Assembly: GCA_964447205.1 (NCBI GenBank)
Contig: CAYUSB010000042.1
Span: 1,503-65,502 of the forward strand
DNA: 64,000 nucleotides
DNA from: an uncultured Myxococcaceae bacterium
Lineage (GTDB): Bacteria > Myxococcota_A > Polyangia > Polyangiales > Ga0077539
Direction of reading: 5' to 3'
The translations under genes and the position numbers were made by a program. Each line of letters starts with the position of its first letter. Positions within the stretch are counted from its first letter, which is position 1. Below are positions 3,906 through 61,389 of this stretch, one piece after another. The notes under the pieces were generated by a model, which saw only the letters and a program-made list of their open reading frames with translations, searched no databases and was not told the DNA's origin.

Positions 3906-3927
3906 CCCGTCACCGCCGGGTGACGGG
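3906..3927. promoter_or_regulatory. Perfect 9-bp inverted repeat CCCGTCACC-gccg-GGTGACGGG, about 110 bp upstream of the fas start
   Basis: The palindrome is read directly from the sequence and sits in the 290-bp intergenic region ahead of the FAS-I gene. That it is an operator for a fas regulator (by analogy to TetR-type FasR in mycobacteria) is inference only. Confidence 0.25.
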
Positions 3928-4034
3928 TTGCGCAGACTCTCCCCCTTCCTCTATCAGCGCGTCCGCGCGCCCTCTCCGTCGCGACGTCCCGATGCGCGGG
4001 GTGTCGCGCTCTCCTGCGCGCCGCGGAGCGTTCG

Positions 4035-14378: not shown

Positions 14379-14384
14379 GCTGCC

Positions 14385-30751: not shown

Positions 30752-33250
30752 TTACGCCTGCTCGGGTTCGAGGGCCCGCAGGGCGCTTGCCTCGGTGGGC
30801 AGCAGGCGCGCGAGGGAGGTCCCGTGCAGGAGCCGGGCGAGCACGGCCGCGACGCTCTCGCCGCCCAGAATGGCCAGGGGGGCCATGCTCTCGGCCACCT
30901 TGGCGGTCAGGGCCCGGTCGCCGAAGGCCTGCAGGGCCGCCACGAGGTCGGGCGAAACCGCCTGGGCCTTGTCGACCACGGCCCGAACCTCCGCCTGAAG
31001 CTCGGCCAGACGCTGGGCCTGGGCCTGCGCTTCCAGCCCCGCCTCGATCTCTCCGCGGGCCTTGACCCGCTGAATCTCGGCGGCGTGCACGAGGTCGAGG
31101 AGGCTCTGCTCGGCCGCGCGGACGGCCTTACGTTCGGCCTCCAGGGCGGCCTCGGCCTTGACCTCGGCGAGGCGCAAGACGTGGGTGTGGGCGTGCTCGT
31201 TCTGGCGCAGGGTGAGGTCGGCGAGGCGCGTCCCGGCCTGGAGCTCGGCCACCGTACGGCGGGTGGCCTCGGTCTCGCGGGTGAGCTCAAGCTTGCGGCG
31301 CTCGGCGGCCAGGGACAGGGCCTGCCGCACCGTGGCGTGCTGGGCCTCGAGCAGCATCTGGGCGATGTCGCCGTCCCCGAGGGTCACGTCGAGGACCTCC
31401 ACGTCGTAAACGTGCATCCCGTTCTCGTCGAAGAGGCGGCCGGGGCGTTTGCCCGCGTCGTCCTGCTTGCCCAGGATGACCTCGCGCAGGATGGCCGCGC
31501 TCTGCTCGTAGAAGGTCTCCACCCCCTGCTGCTTCACCGCGTGACGGATCAGCGACCGCAGGTGATCGGTAAGAAACTTGACGTAGTTCTCGACGTTGAA
31601 CCACAGGCCCGGGTCGCCCACGAAATTGACCCGGTACGACAGGAGGAGCCGCACCCGGCACAGGTCCCGGGTCTCGGCCTCGACCACGTCGGAGACCTTG
31701 TTGTTGAGCACCCGGAGGTAGGCCGTGCGGAAGAGCTCGACGTCCGTCTTGGGGGTTCCCGTGGAGAGTTCGAGGGCCTGGAGGGTCTCGTCGTAGGCGA
31801 GGAGGTGGGTGTGGGGCCCGACGATCACCCGCCGCTCGCCGCTGCGGTTGACGACCATCACCGCGTAGCCAGTCCACACCCCGATGGCCACGGCCCCGTC
31901 GTAGCGGGTGTCGAGCACGAGGGTGCGGGGTTGGGTGAAGGTCTGCCTGCGGCTGAAGTCATCGCCCGCGAAGGTCGCCGTGGGGGCCGGAGCCGACGCC
32001 GCCTGGGGGGCCCCCATGGGCAGGTCGGCCGCACGCCCCCGGGCCTTCTGAACCTCCTTGTCGGCGAGGTGCTCGCCCCCGCCCTTGCGCTTGAGCTCCT
32101 GGAGGCCTTGATTGACCGCCAGGGCCTCGGCGTTGCCCGGAAACCACAGGCCGACGGTGCGGGCGTCGAGGACCCTCCGCACGATGACCTCCCGCCGCGG
32201 ATCGGGCAGGAAGATCGAGGGCCCCCGCTGGAGCCGGATCTGCCCGCTGTTGCGGTCGAGGACGTAGCGCCCCTCGCCCGCGGGGATGGCCAGGGCGTAG
32301 TGGATCTCCTGGTCGCCGTACTTGACGATCGCGTGCTCGGGGCGCGGGAAGTAGATCATCTGGTCGCGGCCCGTGAGGAAGAGCTCGTCGCCGACCTTGT
32401 AGGCCCGGCCGTCCTCCTCGTAGGGGGCGATGACCTTGACGAAGATCCCGGAGTTCTCGTTGAGCTCCAGGGCCCGAAACTTCCGCCCCGACTCGCGCGC
32501 GATGACCGTCTCGGTGGGCCGCGGGAAGACCACCGCGGGGCCGCGCACGAAGCGCTTGTTGCCGTCTTCGTCGAGCAGGATGCAGTACTCGAGGCGCTCC
32601 AGGGTGATGGCCTCGCGCACGAACCGCTTCTGCTCGTCGGGGACCACCTCGATGCCCGTCGGGGGGATGTGGAAGCTCACCTCCGTGCCCCGGATGACGA
32701 GTTGGGCCCCCATGGTGAGGTCCTCGAGGCGCACCACGGGCTCGGTCCCCTCGGGCTCGCCCTCCTCCGCGGGGCGGGCGCGAAACACGGCGTCTTTCCA
32801 GTTCTTGCGGGCGGCCTCTTCGTCGTAGACGCGCACGACGAGGTACTGGTTGGAGCGGAGGTGGTGGCCCTGGATGACCCGCACCATCTGCCCGGGCCAC
32901 AGGGCGAAGCTGACGGGCCCCGGGGTGTTGACCTTGCGGCCCACCTCGAGGTCGGGGAGGTTGTTGAGGGCCCCGGTGCGGGGGTGGGATCCGTCCTTGG
33001 CTGGGTTCTTCAGGACGAGGTACCAACCCTCGGGGGCGACCGAGAGGGTCTGGGTGGCCTGCTCGAGCGAGCACCGATCGAACCGTTTGGTCTGGTCGTT
33101 GAAGACCACCGGGCGATCGGTGTTGGCCAGGCTGGTCTTGTGGGGCCCGACGTACACGTTGATGTTCCCCTTGGTCTCGTCCGAGATGAAGGCGAACTCA
33201 TTGGGGGCCAGGACCAGGTCGCGGGCCCGGTCACGATCGTTGTCTGCCAT
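30752..33250 (-). CDS. Major vault protein (MVP) homologue, 832 aa: N-terminal MVP repeats, SPFH/band-7-like shoulder, C-terminal cap-helix coiled coil
   Basis: The N-terminus (LAPNEFAFISDETKGNINVYVGPHKTSLANTDRPVVF) matches the first MVP repeat of human MVP as I recall it ([35 protein letters not shown]). Repeated beta-rich modules follow. A long C-terminal coiled coil (…RRKLELTRETEATRRTVAELQ…AQAQRLAELQAEVRAVVDK…) and the tail AVSPDLVAALQAF…LAILGGESVAAVLARLL resemble the MVP cap-helix and cap-ring segments. Confidence 0.8.
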   Translation of the reverse strand: MADNDRDRARDLVLAPNEFAFISDETKGNINVYVGPHKTSLANTDRPVVFNDQTKRFDRCSLEQATQTLSVAPEGWYLVLKNPAKDGSHPRTGALNNLPDLEVGRKVNTPGPVSFALWPGQMVRVIQGHHLRSNQYLVVRVYDEEAARKNWKDAVFRARPAEEGEPEGTEPVVRLEDLTMGAQLVIRGTEVSFHIPPTGIEVVPDEQKRFVREAITLERLEYCILLDEDGNKRFVRGPAVVFPRPTETVIARESGRKFRALELNENSGIFVKVIAPYEEDGRAYKVGDELFLTGRDQMIYFPRPEHAIVKYGDQEIHYALAIPAGEGRYVLDRNSGQIRLQRGPSIFLPDPRREVIVRRVLDARTVGLWFPGNAEALAVNQGLQELKRKGGGEHLADKEVQKARGRAADLPMGAPQAASAPAPTATFAGDDFSRRQTFTQPRTLVLDTRYDGAVAIGVWTGYAVMVVNRSGERRVIVGPHTHLLAYDETLQALELSTGTPKTDVELFRTAYLRVLNNKVSDVVEAETRDLCRVRLLLSYRVNFVGDPGLWFNVENYVKFLTDHLRSLIRHAVKQQGVETFYEQSAAILREVILGKQDDAGKRPGRLFDENGMHVYDVEVLDVTLGDGDIAQMLLEAQHATVRQALSLAAERRKLELTRETEATRRTVAELQAGTRLADLTLRQNEHAHTHVLRLAEVKAEAALEAERKAVRAAEQSLLDLVHAAEIQRVKARGEIEAGLEAQAQAQRLAELQAEVRAVVDKAQAVSPDLVAALQAFGDRALTAKVAESMAPLAILGGESVAAVLARLLHGTSLARLLPTEASALRALEPEQA

Positions 33251-33555
33251 CGCGGTGCCACCTCCCGCGGCGGAGTCTCACTGCATCGCCGCGCGGGCAG
33301 ACTCTAGGGGCACCCGACCCCCCTTGACCAGAGCGAGGGACACCGCGGGAGGGCCGCCACGAACCACGCAAAACGCCCATGGGACGCCCCGCTCACCATG
33401 ACTTTGTTGCACGGCCCGCAGGGTCGAGATTTCTCGATTGCGCACGCCGCGCCTTCTGTTTTAGGGCCCTGCGGCAGCGAGGCCACTGGGGCCTGTCGCC
33501 CTCCAGGCGGCGGGTCGGGTCCAGGGTCTGTTCGTCCTCTCAAGGGGTTTATCTG

Positions 33556-34161: not shown

Positions 34162-35256
34162 CTACTTCTTGCCGGCCTTGGCCTCTTCGATGGCGGTGTA
34201 CTCCCGCTCGAAGAGGACCCGCTGGTCGGTGACGATGGAGAGGTTTTTGTCGTTCATGTCGGAGGGCTCGGCGGCCCCGAGGAGGCGCATCTGGCGGCCG
34301 ATCTCGGACAGGAGGTCGCAGATGTTGGAGAGCAGGTCGAGGTCACGGGTGCGGCGGTCCTGGCCCGCGAAGCCCTTGCGGTACTCCTCGAAGACCTCGT
34401 TGGCCGCGCCCCCGAGGGCCCCCTGGAGATTCTGGAAGGTCTCGGCCTGCCGGGCCTTGCGCACCTCGGTGAGCTCGGTGCGGTAGGTCCCGAGGCTCTC
34501 CTCGACGATCCCGATGTTGTTCTTGTTGTAGTCGCCCGTCACCCCGGCGCTCTCCAGGGCCCGCATGCGGTCCTGGATCTGCACGAGGTTGTCGATGAGG
34601 CGCTGCAGGAGCTCGGGCCGCCGGGTCGCCCGGGGCTTGCCCGCGAAGTGCGTGTCGTACGTCTTGAACTGCGCGTTGGCCATCTCCGCGAGGGCGCTGG
34701 CCTGCTCGTCAGGGGTGCCCATCCCGCGGGCCTCGACGATCTCGCCGCGCTCGGTGCGGTACATCGCGAGGTTGTTGCGCACGATCTCCACGTCCTGGGC
34801 GGCCCCGTCGAGGCCGCGCACCTCGGGCAGGAGCGACACCATCTCCTCCTCGATGCGCTCGAGGTCCTCGATCATCTCCGCGATGAGGCCGAGGTCGCGG
34901 GTGTTGCGCGACTTGCCCGCGAAGTGCCGGTGGTACTGCGCGAACACCAGGTTGGCCTCGGTGCGCAGGGCGTCGAAGTCCGCGGCCTCGCCGCCGAGGG
35001 AGCGGGCCTTCATGATCTCCTTGCGCTCGTTCTCAAACAGCAGGACCGAGTCCTTGACGCTGCTGGCGAGCTCGTCGCGCTCCTTGCCGCGGGGCAGCTT
35101 CGCCAGGTCGTTGGCGAGGGCCCGCAGCCGGTTGGTGAGGTTGTTGATGTCTTCGAGCGAGCGGGTCAAGCGTGACTGGCCCGCAAAGCGGGCGTCGTAC
35201 TCGCCAGAGATCTGCTCAAACTGCTGCCGAAGCTGTGCCAGGGTCTGGGTGGCCAT
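34162..35256 (-). CDS. Protein with four tandem ~90-aa repeats (364 aa), each repeat carrying an …F/Y..HFAG[KQ].R.TR.L.LL… motif
   Basis: Four repeat starts are visible: ARFAGQSRLTRSLEDINNL, RHFAGKSRNTRDLGLIAEM, THFAGKPRATRRPELLQRL and KGFAGQDRRTRDLDLLSNI. The sequence is helical with natural composition. I recognised no family. Confidence 0.6.
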   Translation of the reverse strand: MATQTLAQLRQQFEQISGEYDARFAGQSRLTRSLEDINNLTNRLRALANDLAKLPRGKERDELASSVKDSVLLFENERKEIMKARSLGGEAADFDALRTEANLVFAQYHRHFAGKSRNTRDLGLIAEMIEDLERIEEEMVSLLPEVRGLDGAAQDVEIVRNNLAMYRTERGEIVEARGMGTPDEQASALAEMANAQFKTYDTHFAGKPRATRRPELLQRLIDNLVQIQDRMRALESAGVTGDYNKNNIGIVEESLGTYRTELTEVRKARQAETFQNLQGALGGAANEVFEEYRKGFAGQDRRTRDLDLLSNICDLLSEIGRQMRLLGAAEPSDMNDKNLSIVTDQRVLFEREYTAIEEAKAGKK

Positions 35257-36095: not shown

Positions 36096-36560
36096 TTGGC
36101 CCTCTCGATCGGCACCCCCGCCCCTGATTTTACCCTCCCGGCGAAGCCCGGCGAGACCGTCACCCTGTCGTCGCTGCGGGGCCGCCCCGTGGTGCTGCTG
36201 TTCTACCCCGCGGCGTTTACGTCCGTGTGCACGAAGGAGATGTGCACCGTGGGCGAGGACTTCTCCGCGTACGAGGGCCTCGGGGCCGCGGTGCTCGCCA
36301 TCTCCGTCGACACCCCGTGGGTGGTGACGAAGTTCAAGGACGAGACCAAAGCCCCCTTCCCCTTCCTGTCGGACTTCAACAAGGACGTGATCCGGGCCTA
36401 CGACGTGGTGCGCCACGAGTTCGCCTACGGGCTGCGCGACGTGGCCGAGCGGGCGGTCTTCGTGATCGACCCCGCGGGCACGATCACCTACGCCTGGGTA
36501 GGCGCCAACCCTGGGGTCTTCCCCGACCTCGACGCGGTCAAGAAGGCCCTCGCCGCGTAG
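36096..36560 (+). CDS. 1-Cys peroxiredoxin of the AhpE-like subfamily (AhpC/TSA fold)
   Basis: LALSIGTPAPDFTLPAKPGETVTLSSLRGRPVVLLFYPAAFTSVCTKEMC…VLAISVDTPWV…FPFLSDF has the peroxidatic Cys in the FTSVCT context. It is close to M. tuberculosis AhpE as I recall it (…APDFTLRDQ…LLVFFPLAFTGICQGEL…ALAISVGPP…FPLLSDF). TTG 36096 is the most plausible start; the long upstream extension in the track is antisense to plsC and I rejected it. Confidence 0.7.
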   Translation: MALSIGTPAPDFTLPAKPGETVTLSSLRGRPVVLLFYPAAFTSVCTKEMCTVGEDFSAYEGLGAAVLAISVDTPWVVTKFKDETKAPFPFLSDFNKDVIRAYDVVRHEFAYGLRDVAERAVFVIDPAGTITYAWVGANPGVFPDLDAVKKALAA

Positions 36561-36626
36561 GGACACTGCCCCGCCCTCGATGGTCCGTCGACAGCGACGC
36601 CCAAGCTACGGTACGACTGCACTGCG

Positions 36627-39341
36627 ATGAACCGCGCCGAGCGTGACCCCCACGACGACGCCTGGCGCGGCCCCCAGGAGTTTGACGACTTCGCCATCAT
36701 ACGCCCCCTCGGCCGCGGCGGGATGGGCCAGGTGTACCTCGGCCGCGACGTGGTCCTCGACCGGCAGGTGGCCCTGAAGTTCACCACCGCGGTCAACCCC
36801 GGCGCCGCCACGCGGGCCCGGTTTCTCCGCGAGGCCCGGGCCATCGCCCGCCTGTCCCACCCCAACGTGGTCGGCATCTTCCGCATCGGCGAGGTCGAGG
36901 GCCGCCCCTACATCGCCTACGAGTTTGTCCCCGGACAGACCCTCGCCGAACTGCGGGCCCCCATGCCCTGGCCCCGCGTGGCCCGGATCGCCCTCGGCAT
37001 CGCCCGCGGCCTCGCCGCCGCCCACGCCGCGGGGGTCCTGCACCGCGACGTCAAACCCACCAACGTCATGCTCACCGCCGCGGCAGATGTCAAGCTCCTT
37101 GACTTCGGCCTCGCCCGCCTCGACGACAGCGACGGCCCGAGCCCGCCCGAAGGCCCCATCCCTCCGGGGGGCTCCGTCGACCCGCACGCCCTCACCGCTC
37201 CCGGGGACACCGCCCGCTCGCGCCTCTCCGGGGCCGACGCCGTGATGGGGACACCGCTCTACATCCCCCCCGAGATCTGGCTCCGGGCGCCCGCCACCGA
37301 GCGCTCCGACCTCTACGCCCTGGGCCTCGTGCTCTACGAGCTCCTGGCGGGCGAGCTCCCCCACGCGGGTCGGGCCCGCGAGCTGCACATCGACGACGTC
37401 CTCTACCGCGACCCGGAGCCCATCCGGGCGCGGTTTCCCGACGTGTTGCCCTCGTTCGCGGCCCTGGTCGACCAGTGCCTGCGCCGCGACCCGGCCGAGC
37501 GCCCCGCCTCGGCGGCCGCGGTGGCCGAGACCCTGGAGCGCATCGGGGCCCTCTTCCTCGGGCGCTCCGAGGCCGCGGCCTCGCTCCACGACGACGACGA
37601 CGCCCGCCTCGTGTCGGCCTCCCTCGACCGCTGCCTCTCCGCCGACGCCTCCCTCGTGGACGGGGTGTACTCCAGGCTCTTCGCCGCCCGGCCCGACCTT
37701 CGGGGGCTGTTCCCGGTCACCCTCGACGCCCAGCGGGACAAGCTCCAGCACGCCCTGCGCCTCGCCGTGGAGTGCCTGTCCGACCTGTCCCGGGTCGAGC
37801 CCCTCCTGCGCGACCTCGGGCAGCGCCACGCCGCCCTGCGCCTCGAAGCCCGCGACTACGACGTCCTCGGGGTCTCGCTCCAGGGGGCCCTGGCCGCGAT
37901 CGACCCCGACTGGTCGCCCGCGCTCGAGGCCGCCTGGCGGCGGGCCTACACCTACCTGGTCTCGGCCATGCGCCGGGGCGAACGCGGGGCCGTGAGCGCC
38001 TCGACCCAGAGCGGCAGCGGCGACCAGGACCCCCGCGGCCTCCGTCCCTCCTCCAGCGCCACGAGCACCCGCCCCCCGCCCACCCGCTACGCCTACGTCG
38101 GCGACGTGGGGGTGGCCTGGCAGACCTTCGGGGTGCGGGCCCCCGACGTCCTCGTGCACTTCGGTTGGATCTCCCACCTCGACCACGCCTGGCGCCACCC
38201 CCGCCCCGTGAGCTTCCTGCGCAGCCTCGGGGCCATGGCCCGGGTCGTGGCGATGGACAAGCGGGGGGTCGGCCTGTCCGAGCGCGTGACCGACCTGCCG
38301 CGCCTCCAGCAGAGCCTCGAAGACCCCCTGGCCGTGCTCGACGCCACCGGGTCGCGACGGGCCGTGCTCTTCGGGGTGGGCGAAGGGGCCACGGTGGCCC
38401 TGCTCCTGGCCGCGGTGTTTCCCACGCGGGTGCGGGGGGTGGTGTGCCTCAACGCTACGGCGAGGCTCCTGCGCGCGGACGACCACCCCGCGGGCCTCGA
38501 GCCCGCCTTCCTCGACGAGGCCGTGGCCCGGTACCGCCGCCACTGGGGCGACGCGCGCTTCGCCCGCGACGAGGCCCCGTCGCTCGCCGCCGACGCCGAC
38601 TTCTGCGCGTGGTACGGCGAGTTTATGCGCTCGGCCTCGTCGCCGGGCCAGGCCCTCGCCCAGGTGCGCCTCTTCGCCCGCTACGACGCCCGGGCCTTCC
38701 TGCCCTTCGTGCAGGTCCCCGTGTTGGTGATGCACCGGGCCGACAACCGGATGGTCCCCATGGCCGCCGGGCGCGACCTCGCCGACCGCCTCCCCGGGGC
38801 CCGCTTCGTGGCCCTGCCCGGGGCCGACAACCTCCCCTACGCGGGCGACACCGGCCCCCTCCTGTCCCACCTCGACGCCTTCCTGCGCGAGCCGGGCCTC
38901 GACGGGCCCACCCCGGCCCCCCTGACCACCCTGTGCCTCGTGCGGGCCGACCGCCCCGAGGCCCCGCGCCTCGCCCTGGCCGCCGAGCGCTTCGCCGCCC
39001 TCGGGGCCCGCCCCATCGCCCTGCCCGACCCCCGGACGGCCCTGTACGCCACGCCCTGGTTTGCGAGCGCCGCCGAGGTGGCCACCCAACTCGTGGCCTC
39101 GCCCGAAGCCCACGACGCGGGCCTGCGGGTGGCCCTGCACGCCGACGCCTTCGACCTCGCCGGGCTCCAGGGCACCGCCGCCATGCGGGCCCTGCGGGCG
39201 GCCTCTGAGGCCCTTCCCTCGGGCAGCGCCGCAGCCTCCTCCCTGGTGGCCTCCCTCCTCGCGGGAACGTCCCTGCAGACCGGCGACAGCCTCATCGCCG
39301 AAGGGGTGACCTTCTCGCGGCTCGTCCGCGGCGACGGCTGA
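36627..39341 (+). CDS. Multidomain Ser/Thr protein kinase: Hanks kinase - globin-like domain - alpha/beta hydrolase - C-terminal unknown domain (904 aa)
   Basis: Kinase motifs are present (GRGGMGQVYLG, VALK, HRDVKPTN, DFGLA, GTPLYIPPE). A globin-like segment follows (LFPVTLDAQRDKLQHALRLAVECL…LLRDLGQRHAALRLEARDYDVLGVSLQGALAAI…EAAWRRAYTYLVSAM), with the F-helix His and the G/H-helix pattern. After that comes an alpha/beta hydrolase fold (VHFGWISHLDHAW…MDKRGVGLSE…LFGVGEGATVALLLAAVFP) and a ~150-aa C-terminal domain. Confidence 0.8.
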   Translation: MNRAERDPHDDAWRGPQEFDDFAIIRPLGRGGMGQVYLGRDVVLDRQVALKFTTAVNPGAATRARFLREARAIARLSHPNVVGIFRIGEVEGRPYIAYEFVPGQTLAELRAPMPWPRVARIALGIARGLAAAHAAGVLHRDVKPTNVMLTAAADVKLLDFGLARLDDSDGPSPPEGPIPPGGSVDPHALTAPGDTARSRLSGADAVMGTPLYIPPEIWLRAPATERSDLYALGLVLYELLAGELPHAGRARELHIDDVLYRDPEPIRARFPDVLPSFAALVDQCLRRDPAERPASAAAVAETLERIGALFLGRSEAAASLHDDDDARLVSASLDRCLSADASLVDGVYSRLFAARPDLRGLFPVTLDAQRDKLQHALRLAVECLSDLSRVEPLLRDLGQRHAALRLEARDYDVLGVSLQGALAAIDPDWSPALEAAWRRAYTYLVSAMRRGERGAVSASTQSGSGDQDPRGLRPSSSATSTRPPPTRYAYVGDVGVAWQTFGVRAPDVLVHFGWISHLDHAWRHPRPVSFLRSLGAMARVVAMDKRGVGLSERVTDLPRLQQSLEDPLAVLDATGSRRAVLFGVGEGATVALLLAAVFPTRVRGVVCLNATARLLRADDHPAGLEPAFLDEAVARYRRHWGDARFARDEAPSLAADADFCAWYGEFMRSASSPGQALAQVRLFARYDARAFLPFVQVPVLVMHRADNRMVPMAAGRDLADRLPGARFVALPGADNLPYAGDTGPLLSHLDAFLREPGLDGPTPAPLTTLCLVRADRPEAPRLALAAERFAALGARPIALPDPRTALYATPWFASAAEVATQLVASPEAHDAGLRVALHADAFDLAGLQGTAAMRALRAASEALPSGSAAASSLVASLLAGTSLQTGDSLIAEGVTFSRLVRGDG

Positions 39342-39615: not shown

Positions 39616-41022
39616 TCAGTCGTCCCCGCCCGAAGCCTCGGCGTCGGCGGACAGGAGCCGCGGGTCGACCTGGTGGGCGCTCAACCACCGCCGGAGCTGG
39701 TTGCGATGCATCCCCAGAGCCCGGGCCGCCGAGGCCACCCGACCCCCGTGGACCCGCAGGGCGGCCTCGATCTCGTCGCGGGTCGGCGGCGTGCGGGGAG
39801 CCGGGGTGTCGGCCTTGGCGGGGAGCCCCGAGGCCCGCCCCGCGACGGCCACCGGGGGCGAGGCGGACAAGGCACGGTCGACGGTAAACACCATGCCCGC
39901 GGTGGGCGACAGGTCGCCGGCCCGCACCCGCCCATCGCCCGCGGCGGCGGCGGCGTGCACGGCGGCGTCGAGCTCGGCCACAAACTCCCGCACGTTGCCG
40001 GGCCACGGGCGCACCATGCAGGCCTCCACCAACGAGGCGTGGGCCGTGAGGCCGTGGGGGGCGAGGCGACGCTCGACCAGGGTGGCGATCTCCTCGCGGC
40101 GCTCGCGCAGGGGAGGCAGAGCCACCATGGGGCGGCCGATCCGAAAGTAGAGGTCTTCGCGGAAACGACGGTCGGCCACGCGCTCGCGCAGATCGCGGTG
40201 GGTCGCCGAACAGAACCGCACGTCGACCGTGAGGGGCTTGGAGGCCCCCACGGGGATCACCTCCCGATACTCCAGGGCCCGCAGGAGCTTGGCCTGCACC
40301 TCCAGGGAAAGCTCGCCCACCTCGTCGAGGAAGAGGGTGCCCCCGTCGGCCTCCTGGAAATGCCCGGGCTGATCGGCGTGGGCCCCGGAGTACGCCCCCT
40401 TGCGCGAACCAAACAGCACCCGCTCGGCCACGCCCTCGGGGATGGCCGCGCAGTTGATGGCCACGAAGGGACCCCGGGGGCGCGGGCCCATCGCGTGGAA
40501 GGCCCGGGCCGCGAGCTCCTTGCCCGTCCCGCTCGACCCCGTGATGTGCAGGACGGCCCCCTCGGCGGCCTGACCGATGCGCTCCATCACCGCCGCCAGG
40601 GAGGCCCCGATGACCTTGCCGTCCTCCACCCGCAACGGCCGCTCGGCGTAGGGCAGCACATCGGGAACGAGCCACAACACCGTGTCGCCCACCCGCAGGG
40701 TGGCCCGCTCTCCGGTGCGTACCTCGCCCGCCACCGCCACCCCGTCGACCGCCGTCCCGTTGCGGCTCCCGAGGTCGCGTACGGCCCAGGCCCCCTGCTC
40801 CCACCGGGCCTCGACGTGCAGGCGCGACACCCGGGCGTCGGGCAGGCTCAACCCCGCGAGGCGATCGCGCCCGAGGGCCACCACCCCGTCCTGGGACGGC
40901 ACGATCGTATGGACCGCCCGGTCGACGCTAAATACCACCAGGGCCCCAGGGAGCGGGGGGCGGGCGGTGCGGCCGCGGTCGATGGTCAGGAGGTCGACCG
41001 TCTGAGAAACGGATCCGCTCAC
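39616..41022 (-). CDS. Sigma-54-dependent transcriptional activator with an N-terminal FHA domain and a C-terminal Fis-type HTH
   Basis: The FHA region is VALGRDRLAGLSLPDARVSRLHVEARWEQGAWAVRDLGSRNGTAVDG. The AAA+ sigma54-interaction domain includes LHITGSSGTGKELAARAFH, GAYSGA (a variant of GAFTGA), GGTLFLDEVGELSLEVQAKLLRALE and DLYFRI. The HTH is ASAARALGMHRNQLRRWL. Confidence 0.85.
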   Translation of the reverse strand: MSGSVSQTVDLLTIDRGRTARPPLPGALVVFSVDRAVHTIVPSQDGVVALGRDRLAGLSLPDARVSRLHVEARWEQGAWAVRDLGSRNGTAVDGVAVAGEVRTGERATLRVGDTVLWLVPDVLPYAERPLRVEDGKVIGASLAAVMERIGQAAEGAVLHITGSSGTGKELAARAFHAMGPRPRGPFVAINCAAIPEGVAERVLFGSRKGAYSGAHADQPGHFQEADGGTLFLDEVGELSLEVQAKLLRALEYREVIPVGASKPLTVDVRFCSATHRDLRERVADRRFREDLYFRIGRPMVALPPLRERREEIATLVERRLAPHGLTAHASLVEACMVRPWPGNVREFVAELDAAVHAAAAAGDGRVRAGDLSPTAGMVFTVDRALSASPPVAVAGRASGLPAKADTPAPRTPPTRDEIEAALRVHGGRVASAARALGMHRNQLRRWLSAHQVDPRLLSADAEASGGDD

Positions 41023-41026
41023 GGGC

Positions 41027-42955
41027 TTACGATACCACCGCGTCGGCCGCGTCGCGCCGCCGCACGAGGAGGACCGTACGGTCGTCGTCGCGTACGGCCG
41101 AGAAGGCCTCGACGTCGGCGTGCAGGGCCGCGGCGCAGTCGTCGAGGGACCTGCCCTCGGCGAGGAGGGCGGTGAGCCGGGCGCAGAGGCGGTCGAGGTC
41201 GTACATGGCCCCGTCGGGGTCCTGGGCCTCGATGATGCCGTCAGAGTACAGGCAGAGCACCTCGGAGGGAGCGAGCTCGACCCGGGTGACGGGCACCGCA
41301 GGGAGCTCGGGCACGATCCCGAGCCAGGGCCCCGGGGCCTCGATGCGGCGTACGGCCCGGGCGGCCGTGTCGACCACGAGGGGCCACAGGTGCCCCCCGG
41401 CGAGGTCGAAGGCCCCGCCCCCGCGCCAGGCCACGAGCTGGCAGGTGATGTAGCGCCCCCCGCCGAGCCGGCTGCGGCTATTGGCGTGCACGAGGCGGTT
41501 GACCCGGCGTACGGCCTCGTCGACCCCGAGGTCGGGGGCCGCCTCGAAGACCGTCCGGAAGGCCATCTGGGCGAGCATCATCACGAGGCCCGACCCGAGG
41601 CCGTGGCTCGACACGTCGCCGACGGTGATCCACAGGCCGCTGCCCCGGGTCATCACGTCGTAGAAGTCTCCGCCCACCTCGTCGGCCGGGCGCATCAACC
41701 CGCCAAACTCAAACCCGGGGTGGGCCGGGGCCCTCGGGAGCATCGAGAGCTGGATCGAGGCGGCGATCTCCAGCTCGCGGGCCATCCGCTCCTGGTCGGC
41801 GGCGAGGCGGCGACGTTCGGCCTCGGCCTGCTCGCGGCGGCGCAGGCTCTCCTGCAGGGTGGCCGTCATCTCGTTGAAGCTCGACGCGAGGCGCTGCATG
41901 GTCGCGTCCCCGACGGCGTCGAGGCGGAAGGTGAGGTCGCCCGCCCCGAGGTGGGCGAAGGCCTGCTGGAAGGCCGCCTGGGTGGCCTCGATGAGGCCCG
42001 CCGTCGGAAAGGCCGCGAAGACCACCCAACGGATCTCCGGGACCACCCGAAAGGCCACGAGGTGCTGCACCCCCGCGGCGTCGCGGAGCTCGACCTGTCC
42101 GTGGCCCCGGGCCGCGAGGTCGGCGAGGTCGAGGCTCGCGTAGTCGCCCCCGAGGGAGGCGAGCTGGATGTTGTACACCGCCCCCTTCTCCCCCTGGGCC
42201 GCGGGGTCGAGGGAGGGGTGGGCCAGGAGCCTTCCGTCGAGGTCGACAAGGAAGTTGACCTGTCCCTCGCCGAGGCGCCCGAGGGCGTCGAGGGTGAGGT
42301 CGGCGTGGAGCTCGGCGAGGCGCACGTCCATGGTCCACACCCCGAGGAAGGTGTCACCCTCGTACAGGGGGACCGACACGCACGAGATGAGCCCCTGGCC
42401 GCCGTAGTCGACGTTGGGGGGGCTCCAGCGCACGACCCGGTCGGGGTTGGCCCCTGGCTCGGCGATGGTGAAGCTGTGGTAGGTGTGCCAGTCGAAGTCG
42501 CTGGGGATCATCGACTCGGGCACGAGGGCCGGGGTCACCACGCAGAAGTGACGGGTGGTGGCGTCTTGGAAGTACGCCCAGGCCACGCCCTTGAGGCGCT
42601 GCTGGAGGGCGGCGGCGTGGGGCATGACCCGTTCGAGGGCGAGGGCCCGGCGGCCCGTCTCGGGGTCGTCCTGGACGGTGGCGGCCCAGACGAAGATGCC
42701 CTGACCGGCGACGGCCCCCGAGGCCCGTGCCGCTTCGACCCGGGGCTCCCGCTCGAAGAACCCCGACGGCAGGGCGACGAAGCCCTCGGCCGACAGCCAG
42801 GCCGCGACCTCGGCGGGCGTCGGGCGCACCGTGGCGAAGAGCTGGCACGTGAGATAGGCCAGGGAGTCGAGGGCGTCGTGGAGGCGCCGGACCCTGGATC
42901 CGAGCGAGACGGCGACGAGTTCTACCTGGCGGTGGATGAGGTCGATCTGGCGCAT
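41027..42955 (-). CDS. Sensor PP2C-type Ser/Thr phosphatase (Cache-like periplasmic sensor - TM - HAMP - SpoIIE/PP2C domain), RsbU-like
   Basis: MRQIDLIHRQVELVAVSLG… A HAMP-like segment (LTFRLDAVGDATMQRLASSFNEMTATLQES) is followed by a coiled coil. The PP2C domain includes ASIQLSMLP…GGDFYDV…ITVGDVSSHGLGSGLVMM…LCLYSDGIIEA. The longer upstream extension to 43126 overlaps the STAS gene and I rejected it. Confidence 0.75.
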   Translation of the reverse strand: MRQIDLIHRQVELVAVSLGSRVRRLHDALDSLAYLTCQLFATVRPTPAEVAAWLSAEGFVALPSGFFEREPRVEAARASGAVAGQGIFVWAATVQDDPETGRRALALERVMPHAAALQQRLKGVAWAYFQDATTRHFCVVTPALVPESMIPSDFDWHTYHSFTIAEPGANPDRVVRWSPPNVDYGGQGLISCVSVPLYEGDTFLGVWTMDVRLAELHADLTLDALGRLGEGQVNFLVDLDGRLLAHPSLDPAAQGEKGAVYNIQLASLGGDYASLDLADLAARGHGQVELRDAAGVQHLVAFRVVPEIRWVVFAAFPTAGLIEATQAAFQQAFAHLGAGDLTFRLDAVGDATMQRLASSFNEMTATLQESLRRREQAEAERRRLAADQERMARELEIAASIQLSMLPRAPAHPGFEFGGLMRPADEVGGDFYDVMTRGSGLWITVGDVSSHGLGSGLVMMLAQMAFRTVFEAAPDLGVDEAVRRVNRLVHANSRSRLGGGRYITCQLVAWRGGGAFDLAGGHLWPLVVDTAARAVRRIEAPGPWLGIVPELPAVPVTRVELAPSEVLCLYSDGIIEAQDPDGAMYDLDRLCARLTALLAEGRSLDDCAAALHADVEAFSAVRDDDRTVLLVRRRDAADAVVS

Positions 42956-42990
42956 GGGATGCTTCGCCCCGCGGGTGGGTATTGGGTGTC

Positions 42991-43380
42991 TTAGACGGTC
43001 TCGAGGGTCACGTGGGCCCCGCCCATCATGGCGATGGCGGGAAACGCAGCGGCCTGCCAGGTGACCCCTCGCTTCGTACGAAACCGCAGCCGGTACTGCC
43101 GCGGGGCGGGCTCGCCGGCGATCCACGCCACCCAGTCGAGGAAGACGCGAAGGCCCGACGAGTTGACGAAGCGGAGCTCGGTCACGTCGACCACGACCTC
43201 GCCCCCGCCCGCTGCGGCGTCGTGCAGGGCCCGGAAGTGCGGCCCGACCTCGGCCACGGGGTCGCGCAGGGCGAGCTCTCCCCGCAGGGCCAGGGCCCGG
43301 GCCTCGACGAGGGCGACCTCGAAACGTCCCGCATTGAGCGGGGCGACGGAGGCCAGGGAGTCGGTCTTCGTGTCGTTCAC
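42991..43380 (-). CDS. STAS-domain protein (anti-sigma-factor antagonist-like), 129 aa
   Basis: …VVVDVTELRFVNSSGLRVFLDWVAWIAG… Its start overlaps the stop of the upstream RsbW-like gene. It is a paralogue of the C-terminal domain of the kinase at 43890..45188. Confidence 0.65.
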   Translation of the reverse strand: MNDTKTDSLASVAPLNAGRFEVALVEARALALRGELALRDPVAEVGPHFRALHDAAAGGGEVVVDVTELRFVNSSGLRVFLDWVAWIAGEPAPRQYRLRFRTKRGVTWQAAAFPAIAMMGGAHVTLETV

Positions 43381-43853
43381 GAGGCCCCCCCCTCGATGCG
43401 GCGGGTTGCGGTGACGGTGATCACCCGGTCGGTGTAGTCGCCCGCGAGGTCAAACCCGCCCTCGCAGCCGATGCGATAGATCCCGAGGCGGCTCGATCCC
43501 CCGGGGGAGGTCATGAGCTCGCGCAGCCGGGCGAGGTAGAGGGCCATGCGGTCGTCGGCCGCAGAGAGGCGCTCGATGTGAGCGAGGAGGTCGCGGGCCC
43601 CGGCCTCGGAGGCCGCCCCGTTGCGCACCACCACCCGCACGACGTCGCCGTCGCGGTGGAGCGACACGGTGGCGTTGGGGGCCGCGGGCACCGACTCGCC
43701 GTACTTGATGGCGTTCTCTACGAGCTCGGAGGCGGTCATGACGGTGGCCTCGCGGGCCTCGGGGGGCAGATCGGCCAGGAGGGCCTCCACCTTGTCGCGG
43801 ACGTCTTGCACCTCGGACCACATGGTACGAAGCGGCATGTCGAGCAGGGCCAT
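43377..43853 (-). CDS. RsbW/SpoIIAB-like anti-sigma factor / Ser-protein kinase (GHKL ATPase fold), 158 aa
   Basis: An N-box-like ELVENAIKYG and a G2-like GGSSRLGIY, with a size and position typical of partner-switch kinases. I did not resolve all motifs. Confidence 0.55.
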   Translation of the reverse strand: MALLDMPLRTMWSEVQDVRDKVEALLADLPPEAREATVMTASELVENAIKYGESVPAAPNATVSLHRDGDVVRVVVRNGAASEAGARDLLAHIERLSAADDRMALYLARLRELMTSPGGSSRLGIYRIGCEGGFDLAGDYTDRVITVTATRRIEGGAS

Positions 43854-43889
43854 GGTCGTGCTTCTTTCTGCGCGAGAGAGGGGCGGCCG

Positions 43890-45188
43890 TCAGGGCGCGT
43901 CGCCGAAGATCACCCGGATGGCGTCCGGGGCGATCATCTCCAGGGGCTTGAGGTTGGCCCGCTGCCACAGGACGCCCGGGTCGGCCAGGACCACGAGGCG
44001 GTAGCGGCGACCGGGGGGCTCGGCGTGGATCCAGGCCACCCAACGAATAAACAGCCCCAGGGCCGAGGAGTTGATCTGCTTGACCCGACGCACGTCGAGG
44101 ACGAGGTCGCCCCCCCCGGCGGCGCACTCGTGGACGCGCTGGAAGTGGGGGATGAGGGCCTGCTCGGGGTCGCGGGGGGTGATGCTCCCGACGAAGACCA
44201 GGCGCCCCACGGACTCGACCCCCACCGAGAACGACCGGTGGGTCAGGGGGGCCACCGTGGCGAGCAGGGGGGCCGGGGCCTTCTCCGCGGGGGCCGTACG
44301 GCGCGGGAGCTCGGAGCCGCCCGGCTCGGGCATCGCCGCGAGGCGGGCCAGGGCGTCGGCGGCGCTCGGGGGGCGATCGTCGGGGCGGTGGGCCAGGCAC
44401 GACCGCACGAGGCCGGCCACCTCGGGGTCGTCGAAGGCCACCCCGGGGGGAGCCTCCACCAGGCGCCCCGCCTGGAGGGCCTCGACCCGCTCGCGCCCGC
44501 GGAAGGGATGCATCCCCGTGGCCAGCTCGTGCAAGATCACCCCGAACGAGAACAGGTCGGCCCGGGCGTCGACCGGCCGCCCGAGGATCATCTCGGGGGC
44601 CATGTACCGCACCGTGCCGGCCATCGTGCCCTCGGTGGGGTCGTCGCCGGGGCGCCACCGGCGGGCCACGCCGAAGTCAAGGAGCTTGACGACGCCCCCG
44701 TGGGTGAGGAAGAGGTTGTCGGGCTTGAGGTCGAGGTGCAGGACCCCCGCGGCGTGGGCGGCGTCGAGGCCGGCGAGGGCGTCGCGGGCCCAGGCCCGGA
44801 CCTCGGCGGGGGTGGGGCGGCGGTCGTGGAGGATCTCGCGGAGGGTCTGTCCACGGAGTAGTTCCATCACGATGTAGGCGTTGCCTTCGTGGACTCCGAG
44901 CTCGTAGACGGCGACGACGTTGGGGTGGTTGAGGGCGGCCAGGAGCCGGGCTTCGTCCAGGGTGCGGGCGTCGGAGCGGGCGGCCACCTTGAGGGCCACC
45001 TCGCGCTGCAGGTGCAGGTCTTCGGCGCTGTGGATGTGGCCCATCCCTCCGCTGCCGAGGTGCCGCAGGATGCGGTAGTGCCCGAGCACGGTCCCCGGAG
45101 CCATGGGGCCCTGGGTGGGCGGATCGTCGACCGACGGGCGGAGGGCGTCGGTGGCCGCCTGGGTGTCATCGCCGGAGCCCGAACTCAT
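43890..45188 (-). CDS. Hanks-type Ser/Thr kinase fused to a C-terminal STAS-like domain (432 aa)
   Basis: Kinase motifs are present (GSGGMGHIHSAED, VALK, HLDLKPDN, DFGVA, VRYMAPE). The C-terminus (VLDVRRVKQINSSALGLFIRWVAWIHAEPPGRRYRLVVL) is paralogous to the stand-alone STAS protein 42991..43380 (VVDVTELRFVNSSGLRVFLDWVAWIAGEPAPRQYRLRF). Confidence 0.75.
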   Translation of the reverse strand: MSSGSGDDTQAATDALRPSVDDPPTQGPMAPGTVLGHYRILRHLGSGGMGHIHSAEDLHLQREVALKVAARSDARTLDEARLLAALNHPNVVAVYELGVHEGNAYIVMELLRGQTLREILHDRRPTPAEVRAWARDALAGLDAAHAAGVLHLDLKPDNLFLTHGGVVKLLDFGVARRWRPGDDPTEGTMAGTVRYMAPEMILGRPVDARADLFSFGVILHELATGMHPFRGRERVEALQAGRLVEAPPGVAFDDPEVAGLVRSCLAHRPDDRPPSAADALARLAAMPEPGGSELPRRTAPAEKAPAPLLATVAPLTHRSFSVGVESVGRLVFVGSITPRDPEQALIPHFQRVHECAAGGGDLVLDVRRVKQINSSALGLFIRWVAWIHAEPPGRRYRLVVLADPGVLWQRANLKPLEMIAPDAIRVIFGDAP

Positions 45189-54667: not shown

Positions 54668-57112
54668 CTACTGCAGCACGTCGGGCATCGGGCGCATCGT
54701 GCCGTCGCCGAGCTGCCCGGAGACGTTGTTGCCCCAGCATCGCAGGGTCCCGGCGTAGGTGCGGGCGCAGGTGTGCATCCATCCCGCGGAGAGCTCGACC
54801 GCGTGCCCGAGGGGCGGCAGGGCGAGGACCCCGCGGGCTCCAAACTGGGGGAAGGGGCCGAGCTGACAGTTGTTGTTGGCCCCCCAACAGACGGCCGTCC
54901 CGGCCCGGGTGATGGCGCAGGTGTGATGGGCCCCGGCGGCCAGGGCCACGGCCCCGGAGACCCCCTCCACGGCCTGGGGGAGCACCCGGCGCATGGAGTT
55001 GTCGAAGCCCCCGGCCTGGGCGTGTTCGTTCGAGCCCCAGCAGCGTACGAGGCCGTCGGCCCGGGCCGCGCAAGTGTGGTCCCCCCCGGCCGCGAGGGCC
55101 CGGGCTCCCTCCAGGCCCGAGACCAGCATCGGAAACGGCCGAGGCTCCCGGCCCGCCGTGCCCACCCCGAGGGCCCCGTGCTCCTCCCGGCCCCAACACA
55201 AGACCCCATCCCCCCGCAGGGCGCAGGTGTGACTGGCCCCCGCCGCGAGGGCCTCCACCTCGTTGATCTGCACCCACCCCGCCGACTGCCCCCGCTGGGC
55301 GCCGAGGCCGAGCTGCCCGTAGGCGTCGCTGCCGAAGCAGAAGACCCGCCCGTCGGCCGTACGCAGACACACGTGGGACCCGCCCACCGCGAGGTCGACC
55401 CCCTGCGGCGCAGACGTGATCCGTTGGGGGCGGAGGCTGCGCCCGGTGTGCCAGTCGCCCCAGCACCACAGGGCCCCCGCCCGGTCGAGGGCGCACGACT
55501 GGCCGTGGCCCACCCCAAGCACCAGGGCCCCCCCGGGGATCGGGGCCATCACCGGGCTCGGGCGGTCCTCGCGGCTGCCGTCTCCGAGCTGGCCCTGGGC
55601 GTTGCTCCCCCAGCACCACACACCCCCGTCTCGGCGCAAGACGCAGGTGTGCCCCAGCCCCGCCCGCACGGCCGTGACCTCGGACATGCCGGGCACGTCG
55701 AAGCGCAGCCCCCGGTCGTTGCAACGCCATGCCCCCGCCCCCGCGCGGGTGGGTCCAGGAACCCCCTGCGGAACCCCCTGCGGAACCCCCTGCGGAGCCC
55801 CAGGATGCGGCCCGGGGGGCGCTCCCGGCGAGCGGGAGGCCACCGCCCCTGCGGGCCGTAGGACAGGCCGGGCGGGGCCGTCGTCGGTCACCTGCAGGGC
55901 CACCTCGATCCCGAGCACCCCGAGGGTCAGGACGGCCGCGGCGATGCCCCCCCACAGGGCCCACCGGCGACGCGGGGGACCGGGCGGAGCGGACGGACGA
56001 CGGCGGGACGGCTCGCGGCGCGGGTCGCGGGTCGCCGAGGCCTCGGGGTACCCGGCCTGGGCCTCGGGGCCGCTGCCGAGGAGGGCCACGGTGGCCCCCG
56101 GGGTGAGGTCGAGGGACGGGACCCGCCGGCGCGGGGCGCTCGGCGACCAGGCGATGGGCTCGGTGCGCAGGACCGGGGGGCGCGTGGTGGGCAAGGCCAG
56201 GGCGGGGTCGGGGCCCACGCCGTACAGGGCCAGGAAGGGCCCCAGGGCCGCGTGGGCGTCGTGGTAGCGGGCCGTGGGGTCGCGGTGCACGCAGCGCCCG
56301 AACCACAGGTCGAAGCCCGCCGGGAGGCGGTCGGCCCGGCCCAGCATCGCGGCCCGGACCGAGGCCGGCTCCAGGACGTCCGCGATCAGCTCGCGCAGGA
56401 CCCAGGCGGGGTTGTACTCGCGCTGGTTGGCGCTCTTCCAGTACGGCCGCCCGGTGAGCATGATGAACACCAGGAGCCCGAGGGCCCACACGTCGGTGCT
56501 CGGGCGCAAGACCCCCTGCTCGGCCTGCTCGGGGGCCATCCACAGGGGCGTCCCGAGGGTGCTCGTGGCCTGCACCGAGGTGCGCCCTTCGTTGAGGAAC
56601 TTCGCGATGCCGAAGTCAAGGACCTTGACGACAAACGCGGCCCCCTCCCCGTCCTCGGGGCGGCGCACGAGGAAGACGTTCTGCGGCTTGAGGTCGCGGT
56701 GCACGAGGCCGGCCCGGTGGGCGGCCCCGAGGCCACGGCAGAGTTGGGTCACGATCTCGACCACCGCCTCGGGGGGCAGGGCCCCGTGGCGGCGCATCAC
56801 CTGCCCGAGGTCGTCGCCTTCGAGGTACTCCATGGCGATGAAGGGGGTGGCCGTGGCGTCGTCGACCCCCGCGGCGTACACCTCGACCACGTGGGGGTCG
56901 CGCACCGCGGCGGCGGCGGTGGCCTCACCGAGGAAGCGGGTTCGGGCCTCGGGGCTGTCGACCAGCTCGGGGGTCATGATCTTGAGGGCCGCCCGGCGCC
57001 CGCGGACGTCCTCGACCTCGTAGACGGCCCCCATCCCCCCTGCGGAGATGCGGCGCACGACGCGGTAGGTTCGGGCGAAGACCGTCCCGACTTCGAGGTT
57101 GAGCAGCGCCAC
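54668..57112 (-). CDS. Membrane-anchored Hanks Ser/Thr kinase with an extracytoplasmic RCC1-like repeat (beta-propeller) domain, 814 aa
   Basis: Kinase motifs (GGMGAVYEV, ALK, HRDLKPQN, DFGIAK, GTPLWMAPE) are followed by a Pro-rich linker with QGVP x3, a TM (WALWGGIAAAVLTLGVLGI), then seven or more RCC1-like blades (HTCVLRRDGGVWCWGSNAQGQLGDG…). Confidence 0.8.
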   Translation of the reverse strand: MALLNLEVGTVFARTYRVVRRISAGGMGAVYEVEDVRGRRAALKIMTPELVDSPEARTRFLGEATAAAAVRDPHVVEVYAAGVDDATATPFIAMEYLEGDDLGQVMRRHGALPPEAVVEIVTQLCRGLGAAHRAGLVHRDLKPQNVFLVRRPEDGEGAAFVVKVLDFGIAKFLNEGRTSVQATSTLGTPLWMAPEQAEQGVLRPSTDVWALGLLVFIMLTGRPYWKSANQREYNPAWVLRELIADVLEPASVRAAMLGRADRLPAGFDLWFGRCVHRDPTARYHDAHAALGPFLALYGVGPDPALALPTTRPPVLRTEPIAWSPSAPRRRVPSLDLTPGATVALLGSGPEAQAGYPEASATRDPRREPSRRRPSAPPGPPRRRWALWGGIAAAVLTLGVLGIEVALQVTDDGPARPVLRPAGAVASRSPGAPPGPHPGAPQGVPQGVPQGVPGPTRAGAGAWRCNDRGLRFDVPGMSEVTAVRAGLGHTCVLRRDGGVWCWGSNAQGQLGDGSREDRPSPVMAPIPGGALVLGVGHGQSCALDRAGALWCWGDWHTGRSLRPQRITSAPQGVDLAVGGSHVCLRTADGRVFCFGSDAYGQLGLGAQRGQSAGWVQINEVEALAAGASHTCALRGDGVLCWGREEHGALGVGTAGREPRPFPMLVSGLEGARALAAGGDHTCAARADGLVRCWGSNEHAQAGGFDNSMRRVLPQAVEGVSGAVALAAGAHHTCAITRAGTAVCWGANNNCQLGPFPQFGARGVLALPPLGHAVELSAGWMHTCARTYAGTLRCWGNNVSGQLGDGTMRPMPDVLQ

Positions 57113-57131
57113 CGTGGATCTCCGGAGGCCC

Positions 57132-59609
<2,478 letters not shown>

Positions 59610-59685
59610 CGCGGGGGAGGATACCCGATTCGCGCGCAGGGGTGGCGACGGAGGGGCCCCCGAGGATACACTCCCCTGTCGCTCC

Positions 59686-61389
<1,704 letters not shown>

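Follow-up and report, generated by a model that had tools for sequence, protein, structure and literature searches.

The known outputs of haem-based gas sensors in bacteria are histidine kinases, cyclic-di-GMP enzymes and chemoreceptors, and haem-controlled kinases are already known in FixL, DosS/T, AfGcHK and the eukaryotic HRI. Among these systems, globin-coupled sensors are defined by an S-family globin at the N-terminus that is followed by a C-terminal output domain (PMC7475203). Here we describe a gene at positions 36627..39341 on the forward strand of a 64-kb stretch of the myxobacterial contig CAYUSB010000042.1 (the window), whose 904-residue product joins a Hanks-type Ser/Thr kinase to a globin, an alpha/beta-hydrolase fold and a cyclase homology domain (CHD). 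We propose, with a probability of about 0.55, that this product is a cytoplasmic Ser/Thr kinase with haem-based sensing, in which the state of the haem ligand gates autophosphorylation, with an FHA-containing transcriptional activator acting as the reader. A first-pass annotation of this DNA had regarded the combination as unusual, and full-text literature searches, with several subscription reviews outside their scope, gave no description of a kinase-globin fusion. What is new here is the Hanks kinase output, the F-family globin, the reversed domain order and the pseudoenzyme tail proposed as a scaffold and, probably, the read-out through an FHA-sigma54 activator.

Domain architecture of the protein

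The window has a G+C content of about 73%, which leads to long open reading frames (ORFs) on either strand. Two ORFs overlap at this locus, and 36627..39341 on the forward strand alone is a real gene: its G+C content at third codon positions (GC3) is 0.95, the frame signal is unbroken along the full ORF and the translation shows typical motifs of a Hanks kinase. The overlapping 931-aa ORF of the minus strand, which translates into low-complexity Gly/Arg/Glu sequence, was rejected as an artefact of the high G+C content. An identical 904-aa protein, with the same gene call, is present on a public 74.5-kb metagenome contig (ENA ERZ27284381). The hydropathy scan gave no transmembrane segment in the 904-aa protein, its maximum being a buried strand of the hydrolase. 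The gene and its domains, from N- to C-terminus and with the evidence in brackets (AF2, AlphaFold2), are as follows.

36627..39341, forward strand: whole kinase-globin-(pseudo)hydrolase-(pseudo)cyclase gene, 904 aa, soluble product (ORF, Pfam, GC3, hydropathy)
36696..37523, forward strand, residues 24-299: Hanks-type Ser/Thr kinase (Pfam Pkinase, 1.6e-40)
37590..37991, forward strand, residues 322-455: 3/3 globin (Pfam Globin, neuroglobin match, family profile, AF2, Foldseek)
37992..38066, forward strand, residues 456-480: Ser/Thr/Pro-rich linker (sequence)
38067..38888, forward strand, residues 481-754: LipJ-like alpha/beta-hydrolase fold (NCBIfam LipJ, Pfam Abhydrolase_1, BpoC alignment)
38922..39329, forward strand, residues 766-901: degenerate class III CHD (family profile, AF2, Foldseek)

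This four-domain architecture is practically beyond doubt. Pfam finds both Pkinase and Globin, bearing out the first-pass claim of a Hanks kinase fused to a globin-like domain; the limits given there for the globin (about 330-470) and the hydrolase (about 480-760) had the approximate location right and the exact boundaries wrong (322-455 and 481-754). Homologues are counted throughout among the best 120 clusters of the full-length protein search (n = 120), 109 of them with kinase, globin and hydrolase (n = 109) and 11 without the globin (n = 11). P labels denote protein clusters, and L labels denote loci compared with the window locus.

Kinase and globin domains

The kinase keeps every catalytic residue of the Hanks-type (eukaryote-like) Ser/Thr kinases: K51, E69, H139-R-D141, K143, N146, D159-F-G161, T209, E216, D228 and R292. 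The corresponding columns (VAIK Lys, alphaC Glu, HRD, Asn, DFG, APE Glu, alphaF Asp and the Arg of subdomain XI) are invariant in 119-120 of the 120 homologues, the Gly of the Gly-loop being less strict (113/120). The activation-loop acceptor, eight residues before the GT motif, is conserved as Thr or Ser in 118 of the 120 homologues (110 with Thr, 8 with Ser); in the window protein it is Ser201. The segment from DFG to GT, with 49 residues, is unusually long and rich in Ser, Thr and Pro. Judged from these residues, the domain is an intact, active-looking Hanks kinase of the RD type.

Over residues 347-448 the globin scores 43 bits with Pfam Globin (PF00042; cut-off 22 bits; E = 7e-11). Its AF2 model shows seven helices with a mean confidence (pLDDT) of 90, and in Foldseek it superimposes on neuroglobin and Hell's Gate globin I (HGb-I) with template-modelling (TM) scores of 0.87-0.89, followed by flavohaemoglobin (FHb) and Vitreoscilla haemoglobin (Vgb). 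Pfam, AF2 and Foldseek agree on a 3-on-3 alpha-helical globin fold. The haem-pocket residues are Tyr348 (B10), Phe362 (CD1), Gln369 (E7), Leu373 (E11), His401 (F8; codon 37827-37829) and Trp437 of helix H, conserved in 107, 107, 102, 105, 107 and 108 of the 109 globin-bearing homologues, respectively, and this holds down to about 35% identity. In sequence alignments His401 coincides with the proximal His of neuroglobin (match at 4e-12), and the distal Gln of HGbRL falls on Gln369. Given this pocket, haem binding by the globin is considered likely.

Besides the proximal His F8 and Phe CD1, the pocket has the distal pair Tyr B10/Gln E7 of the F lineage. A profile of the globin family searched against PDB sequences finds HGbRL as the closest relative (4.5e-30), together with the Hell's Gate globins, and then flavohaemoglobins, neuroglobins, thermoglobin and Vgb; the 60 best PDB matches listed include neither HemAT, DosC or GcHK nor a protoglobin. 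Pfam Protoglobin (PF11563) gave no match at E<=1 in the 904-aa protein. On this evidence the globin is assigned to the FHb/neuroglobin-like (F) lineage and not to the protoglobin-type sensor lineage.

Several claims of the first-pass annotation can be judged against these results. The motifs that it read as the F-helix His context (LGQRH) and the H-helix pattern (AWRRAY) contain His401 and Trp437, both nearly invariant, and the fold is a globin rather than the generic four-helix bundle that it had named as the alternative. Of the two Pfam families that it suggested, Globin was recovered and Protoglobin was not. The term globin-coupled sensor fails in its strict sense, as the globin is of the F family and lies C-terminal to the output domain, the kinase (24-299) preceding it. 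The protein is not a classical globin-coupled sensor, though it probably works like one.

As a query on its own the 153-aa globin segment gave no match, being presumably too short, and an exhaustive profile search over 1.84 billion representative proteins was used instead, yielding 438 proteins at E<1e-30. Among 97 close relatives chosen for lacking the exact HRD catalytic-loop motif, seven of which still match Pfam Pkinase, the globin recurs fused to MCP-signal, CheW, PAS, RGS and pentapeptide domains, which suggests that this F-type clade has been recruited for signalling repeatedly. The top matches of the same search (P0121-P0131) are giant tandem-globin proteins of eukaryotic or algal appearance, with up to 14 domains in 2,461 aa.

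A double pseudoenzyme at the C-terminus

The NCBIfam LipJ model (NF058673, 449 positions) aligns through its positions 5-283 with residues 481-754 (1.3e-51), scoring 175.7 bits against an equivalog cut-off of 800, and Pfam Abhydrolase_1 covers residues 531-734 (6.7e-14). As in LipJ, a CHD follows the hydrolase. The Ser-Asp-His triad and GxSxG elbow of LipJ are missing: the triad positions are occupied by Gly585 (38379-38381), Asn707 (38745-38747) and Asn735 (38829-38831), and the nucleophile elbow reads GVGEG, against GVSMG in BpoC. The acid is Asp in 108 and the His is kept in 109 of the 120 homologues; in the globin-bearing members Asp (97/109) and His (98/109) persist with the Ser mostly changed to Gly. 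Loss of all three residues is confined to the clade of the window protein (P0001-P0007); P0012 is an example of a family member in which Ser, Asp and His are all present.

The match to LipJ/Rv1900c, a hydrolase-adenylate cyclase, led us to suspect a decayed cyclase domain in the last 150 residues. Pfam found no cyclase match in the isolated C-terminal 150 aa of six family members, and a profile built from 39 family tails matched the CHD of Rv1900c (1ybt) at 2e-22, Ma1120 at 1.6e-13 and 3mr7 at 1e-9. The AF2 model of the domain (pLDDT 95; predicted TM score, pTM, 0.89) has class III cyclases as all 50 of its 50 best Foldseek matches, led by the Rv1900c CHD with a TM score of 0.74. The fold is therefore that of a class III cyclase. 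The catalytic set of metal Asp, substrate pair and transition-state residues is not retained: in the alignment with 1ybt and Ma1120 there is Arg in both metal-Asp columns (Arg773 in the first), and the transition-state His/Asn and Arg columns hold Arg and Ala. The CHDs of the family mostly lack the cyclase catalytic residues as well.

Read from these substitutions, both C-terminal active sites are dead in the window protein and its tail is a LipJ-derived double pseudoenzyme. The hint of a pseudo-hydrolase that the first-pass annotation took from the GVGEG elbow is strengthened by Asn707 and Asn735, which replace the triad acid and His too. The further domain of about 150 aa that it reported exists, not as an independent domain of unknown kind but as a degenerate CHD, homologous together with the hydrolase to LipJ/Rv1900c. 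A haem-gated enzyme switch acting on the hydrolase, as suggested there, is unlikely here, since Ser, Asp and His are all replaced, and the loss of the cyclase residues leaves it further unsupported.

Distribution and evolution of the family

The kinase-globin architecture is present in more than 100 protein clusters, and every named source is a myxobacterium of the Polyangia: Polyangiales metagenome-assembled genomes (MAGs), Sorangium, Minicystis, Sandaracinus, Nannocystis and Kofleriaceae. Complete genomes that carry it uninterrupted include those of Sorangium cellulosum So ce56 (NC_010162.1, near 8.965 Mb), Minicystis rosea DSM 24000 (CP016211.1, near 8.73 Mb) and Sandaracinus amylolyticus. 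In the databases these proteins are called "alpha/beta fold hydrolase" and, once, "Adenylate cyclase". The tail varies: a CHD is present in 69 of the 109 globin-bearing homologues, and the other 40 end after the hydrolase. A long N-terminal extension is found in 20 of the 109, with a zf-HC2 domain in those checked (Sorangium proteins). The kinase-globin pair also occurs without a further C-terminal domain and, in a Myxococcota MAG, with a STAND NTPase, so that three kinds of C-terminus follow it (LipJ-like tail, none, STAND NTPase).

The GTDB species genomes were scanned with a profile of globin plus hydrolase. Both domains were matched at 18 loci, and all those classified below phylum belong to Polyangia, two being labelled just Deltaproteobacteria or Pseudomonadota. 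Another 62 loci, in Acidobacteriota, Planctomycetota and others, matched the hydrolase only and served as outgroup; they encode hydrolase-CHD at 42 loci, kinase-hydrolase-CHD at 11, kinase-hydrolase at 6 and just the hydrolase at 3. The GxSEGG elbow and the His are present in all 62, and 40 of the 53 outgroup CHDs already lack both metal motifs. The Ser nucleophile is kept in 62/62 outgroup proteins, in 8/11 globin-less paralogues and in 15/109 globin-bearing proteins. The likely history begins with a LipJ-like esterase, its CHD already largely non-catalytic, that gained an N-terminal kinase. On this view a globin next entered between the kinase and the hydrolase in Polyangia, and most members lost the esterase nucleophile after this insertion. 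One Polyangiales MAG (L006, JAWKRC010000013.1) encodes at 12452..14698 a globin-less kinase-hydrolase-CHD paralogue (P0016) about 0.8 kb downstream of a globin-bearing one (P0011), a natural plus/minus-globin pair in one genome.

An adjacent sigma54 activator

The gene downstream of the kinase gene encodes an enhancer-binding protein (EBP). Six other loci have a full-length orthologue of it (47-89% identity) no more than 10 kb from the kinase gene.

39616..41022, minus strand: EBP with FHA, sigma54 AAA+ and HTH_8 domains, convergent with the kinase gene (Pfam)
L001 and L002: EBP orthologue convergent, downstream of the kinase gene
L006 and L007: EBP orthologue divergent, upstream of the kinase gene
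L011 and L014 (two Kofleriaceae MAGs): EBP orthologue co-directional, about 100-170 nt upstream of the kinase gene

In the window EBP, the FHA domain (residues about 40-125) keeps the phosphothreonine-binding residues (GR...SxxH...NGT). The linkage survives rearrangement, as the three arrangements show, which argues for a functional connection. The 62 outgroup loci (~1 Mb) gave one partial AAA+ match. A weaker and more distant FHA-EBP is located 3 kb from the Minicystis kinase gene. We give the EBP at 39616..41022 an even chance of being the partner of the kinase.

Two further observations concern Minicystis rosea (CP016211.1, L004/L010): a separate gene for a 150-aa single-domain globin is found about 90 nt downstream of the kinase-globin gene and convergent to it, and a second sigma54 activator is encoded 3 kb beyond that globin gene.

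Proposed mechanism and alternative explanations

In the mechanism that we propose, the globin would bind haem b, and the ligand or redox state of the haem (O2, NO, CO, Fe(II)/Fe(III)) would alter the conformation of the protein or the geometry of a dimer. Cyclase homology domains are obligate dimers, which is why the tail is proposed as a dimerisation scaffold; F-type globins dimerise as CHDs do, and dimerisation is a common mode of activation among Hanks kinases. The dead hydrolase-CHD tail would thus serve as dimerisation and scaffold module, and the dimer geometry would set the rate of trans-autophosphorylation at the activation-loop Ser201/Thr and in the long Ser/Thr/Pro-rich insert. The resulting phosphothreonines may be bound by the FHA domain of the adjacent EBP, or the EBP may itself be phosphorylated by the kinase, so that the gas or redox state would be passed on to sigma54-dependent transcription. 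A sensor rather than an enzyme is suggested by the absence of a reductase partner domain from the 904-aa protein, by the recurrence of the kinase-globin pair with three different C-termini and by the signalling fusions of the nearest non-kinase globins. A globin with the Tyr-B10/Gln-E7 pocket is predicted to bind O2 tightly and, in its oxy form, to react fast with NO, which makes O2/NO or redox the most likely input.

Several considerations weigh against this proposal. Haem binding, ligand-dependent kinase activity and the kinase-FHA interaction are predictions, and the AF2 models are those of single domains (globin; CHD). Tyr-B10/Gln-E7 is also the distal pocket of the NO-dioxygenating flavohaemoglobins, so the role of the globin may be chemical. 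As for the activator, no FHA-EBP was found near the kinase gene in any of the seven Sorangium loci, in L003, L009, L013 and L031, or on the two short contigs L037 and L080; its linkage is lineage-restricted and may stem from common descent in two clades. Myxobacteria are rich in FHA-EBPs as well as in Hanks kinases, and the outgroup control was drawn from other phyla rather than from random myxobacterial loci. Moreover, the sigma54 consensus TGGCAC-N5-TTGCW (<=2 mismatches) has 11 matches in the window against 14.9 expected, showing no enrichment.

Among the alternatives, it is conceivable but unlikely that the globin is a chemical module, similar to an NO dioxygenase or a peroxidase, which acts with a PrxQ peroxiredoxin in oxidative or nitrosative defence, the kinase reporting or regulating this chemistry. 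The distal pocket of Tyr-B10, Gln-E7 and Leu-E11 is indeed that of flavohaemoglobin and Vgb, and a PrxQ/BCP gene precedes the kinase gene by 66 nt on the same strand in the window and in a locus of 85% identity. However, this adjacency has already gone at 66% identity, there is no FAD/NAD reductase domain in the protein nor a reductase in its neighbourhood, and in every member the globin is flanked by signalling domains. The proximal Tyr-G5/Glu-H23 pair specific to flavohaemoglobins is not conserved either: position 411 is Phe in 78, Tyr in 17 and Leu in 13 of the 109 proteins, and position 452 is Leu in 46, Met in 24 and Glu in 9.

We regard as similarly improbable that the hydrolase-like pocket is the true sensor, a GID1-like receptor of a small hydrophobic ligand, with the globin as an accessory for dimerisation or redox buffering. 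The domain resembles the receptor hydrolases KAI2/D14/HTL (1e-9 to 1e-5), a globin-free kinase-hydrolase-CHD chassis exists in other phyla, and the persistence of the triad Asp and His where Ser is mostly Gly suggests a pocket still under selection. Yet the clade of the window protein has replaced all three residues, about a third of the family (40/109) has a varied tail without CHD while the globin signature is nearly invariant, and some members have no hydrolase or have a STAND NTPase in its place.

Less probable still is a globin fold without haem, used as a helical dimerisation or linker domain as in RsbR and the Bacillus sporulation histidine kinases. Non-haem sensor domains of globin fold are known (PMC7475203). 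Those of the RsbR/Bacillus type, however, have neither a proximal His nor a haem cavity, whereas His-F8, Phe-CD1, Tyr-B10, Gln-E7 and Leu-E11 are kept here in 94-98% of the 109 proteins across the whole range of identity, and haem globins are matched by the family profile with E-values reaching 4.5e-30. Finally, the window comes from a metagenome contig, so that separate genes might have been fused through chimeric assembly or the loss of a stop codon; this is refuted by the same uninterrupted architecture in more than 100 clusters, including the three complete genomes, and by the uniform codon-position G+C along the ORF.

The haem-based sensor kinase is the reading that we prefer. More tentatively, and with rather less confidence, the locus could be a founding example of an O2/NO-to-transcription relay made entirely of eukaryote-like parts and independent of two-component systems, in which an F-globin gates the kinase allosterically, a dedicated FHA-EBP decodes its phosphothreonines and a pseudoenzyme tail provides the scaffold for dimerisation. 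If true, the wiring of a globin to a Hanks Ser/Thr kinase would be an additional output class for bacterial haem-based gas sensors, and the flavohaemoglobin/neuroglobin-like lineage would have been recruited for signalling besides the protoglobin lineage. The protein is also a concrete candidate for the long-missing cognate kinase of a myxobacterial FHA-type sigma54 activator. Apart from this, the family offers a clear case of an esterase and a cyclase decayed to pseudoenzymes after the insertion of a sensor domain, and more than 100 entries named just "alpha/beta fold hydrolase" are open to re-annotation.

Other genes of the window

The genes on either side of the kinase gene and its EBP include the following.

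36096..36560, forward strand: PrxQ/BCP-type peroxiredoxin of 154 aa with a CxxxxC motif, upstream of the kinase gene
41027..43126, minus strand: dCache-HAMP-SpoIIE (PP2C) sensor phosphatase (Pfam)
42991..43449, minus strand: slr1659-like regulator, beyond the phosphatase gene
43377..43889, minus strand: slr1658-like regulator, beyond the slr1659-like gene
43890..45188, minus strand: second Hanks kinase, with a STAS-like tail, at the end of this four-gene run

From their spacing (PrxQ stop codon to kinase ATG) and common strand, the PrxQ and kinase genes are possibly co-transcribed; a scan of 35800-39700, the gap between the two genes included, found no sigma70 promoter or terminator. A PrxQ-kinase link as a family-wide trait was considered and rejected on the distribution given above. 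The run of phosphatase, slr1659-like, slr1658-like and kinase genes accompanies the globin-kinase gene in three loci and is syntenic in L001 and L006. As a whole (41027..45188, minus strand) this phospho-signalling module resembles a SiaABC-like or partner-switching one.

The window holds five Hanks kinases, among them those at 43890..45188 (minus strand) and 59566..61389 (forward strand) and a tandem at 54668..57229 and 57132..59819 (both minus strand), each of the latter two fused to beta-propellers of RCC1 repeats. At 30752..33250 (minus strand) there is an 832-aa bacterial protein similar to the major vault protein (MVP). It has a vault repeat besides the MVP shoulder domain (3e-28), shows SPFH-like similarity and has no PDB sequence match at 1e-3; conservation in the syntenic locus L001 is 91%. 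Sites resembling sigma54 promoters, with 1 and 2 mismatches, are located at 33245..33260 and 35225..35240 (both minus strand), at the 5' ends of this MVP-like gene and of a gene for a 364-aa coiled-coil protein, respectively, in a window whose total of such sites is not above chance. Further upstream, a single ORF of 3,485 aa (3924..14378, forward strand) carries, in a myxobacterial contig, the domain set of a type I fatty acid synthase (FAS-I) of fungal or corynebacterial type: SAT, a Fas1-AflB-like helical domain (1e-91), DH, MaoC, acyltransferase, Fas-alpha ACP, FAS_I_H and KS.

Comparison with known systems

The control of protein kinases by haem status, as in the eukaryotic HRI/eIF2alpha kinase, FixL and DosS/DosT, is similar to the logic proposed for the window protein. 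HRI binds haem through non-globin sites in its N-terminal region and kinase insert; FixL and DosS/T are histidine kinases with PAS or GAF haem domains. The globin-coupled sensors HemAT, EcDosC and AfGcHK share with the protein described here a haem globin covalently tied to a signalling output. In the case of AfGcHK, the control of the kinase by the ligand state is presumably a common logic and a dimeric architecture is likely to be common too. However, in these sensors an N-terminal globin of the S family precedes a histidine kinase, GGDEF or methyl-accepting chemotaxis output, whereas here the globin is of the F family (PF00042), lies C-terminal and is tied to a Hanks kinase, and a double-pseudoenzyme tail is added.

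The neighbouring EBP has the same FHA-AAA+-HTH layout as the FHA-type EBPs of Myxococcus xanthus, which have reportedly been proposed to be under the control of Ser/Thr kinases and not of receiver domains. We know of no FHA-type sigma54 EBP with an assigned cognate kinase that senses haem.

The closest solved relatives of the globin are HGbRL and the Hell's Gate globins of Methylacidiphilum infernorum (PDB 3wfw, 3s1i, 3ubc; profile E = 4.5e-30 to 1.5e-29), which have the Tyr-B10/Gln-E7 pocket in common with it. In HGbRL an F-type globin is likewise fused to a signalling-type domain (Roadblock/LC7), but there the globin is N-terminal, no kinase is present and the partner domain is a different one. 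The C-terminal half, residues 481-904, is collinear with LipJ/Rv1900c of Mycobacterium tuberculosis, an alpha/beta hydrolase joined to a class III adenylyl cyclase. Compared with that enzyme, the window protein has lost the hydrolase triad together with the metal and transition-state residues of the cyclase, and has in addition a kinase and a globin at its N-terminus.

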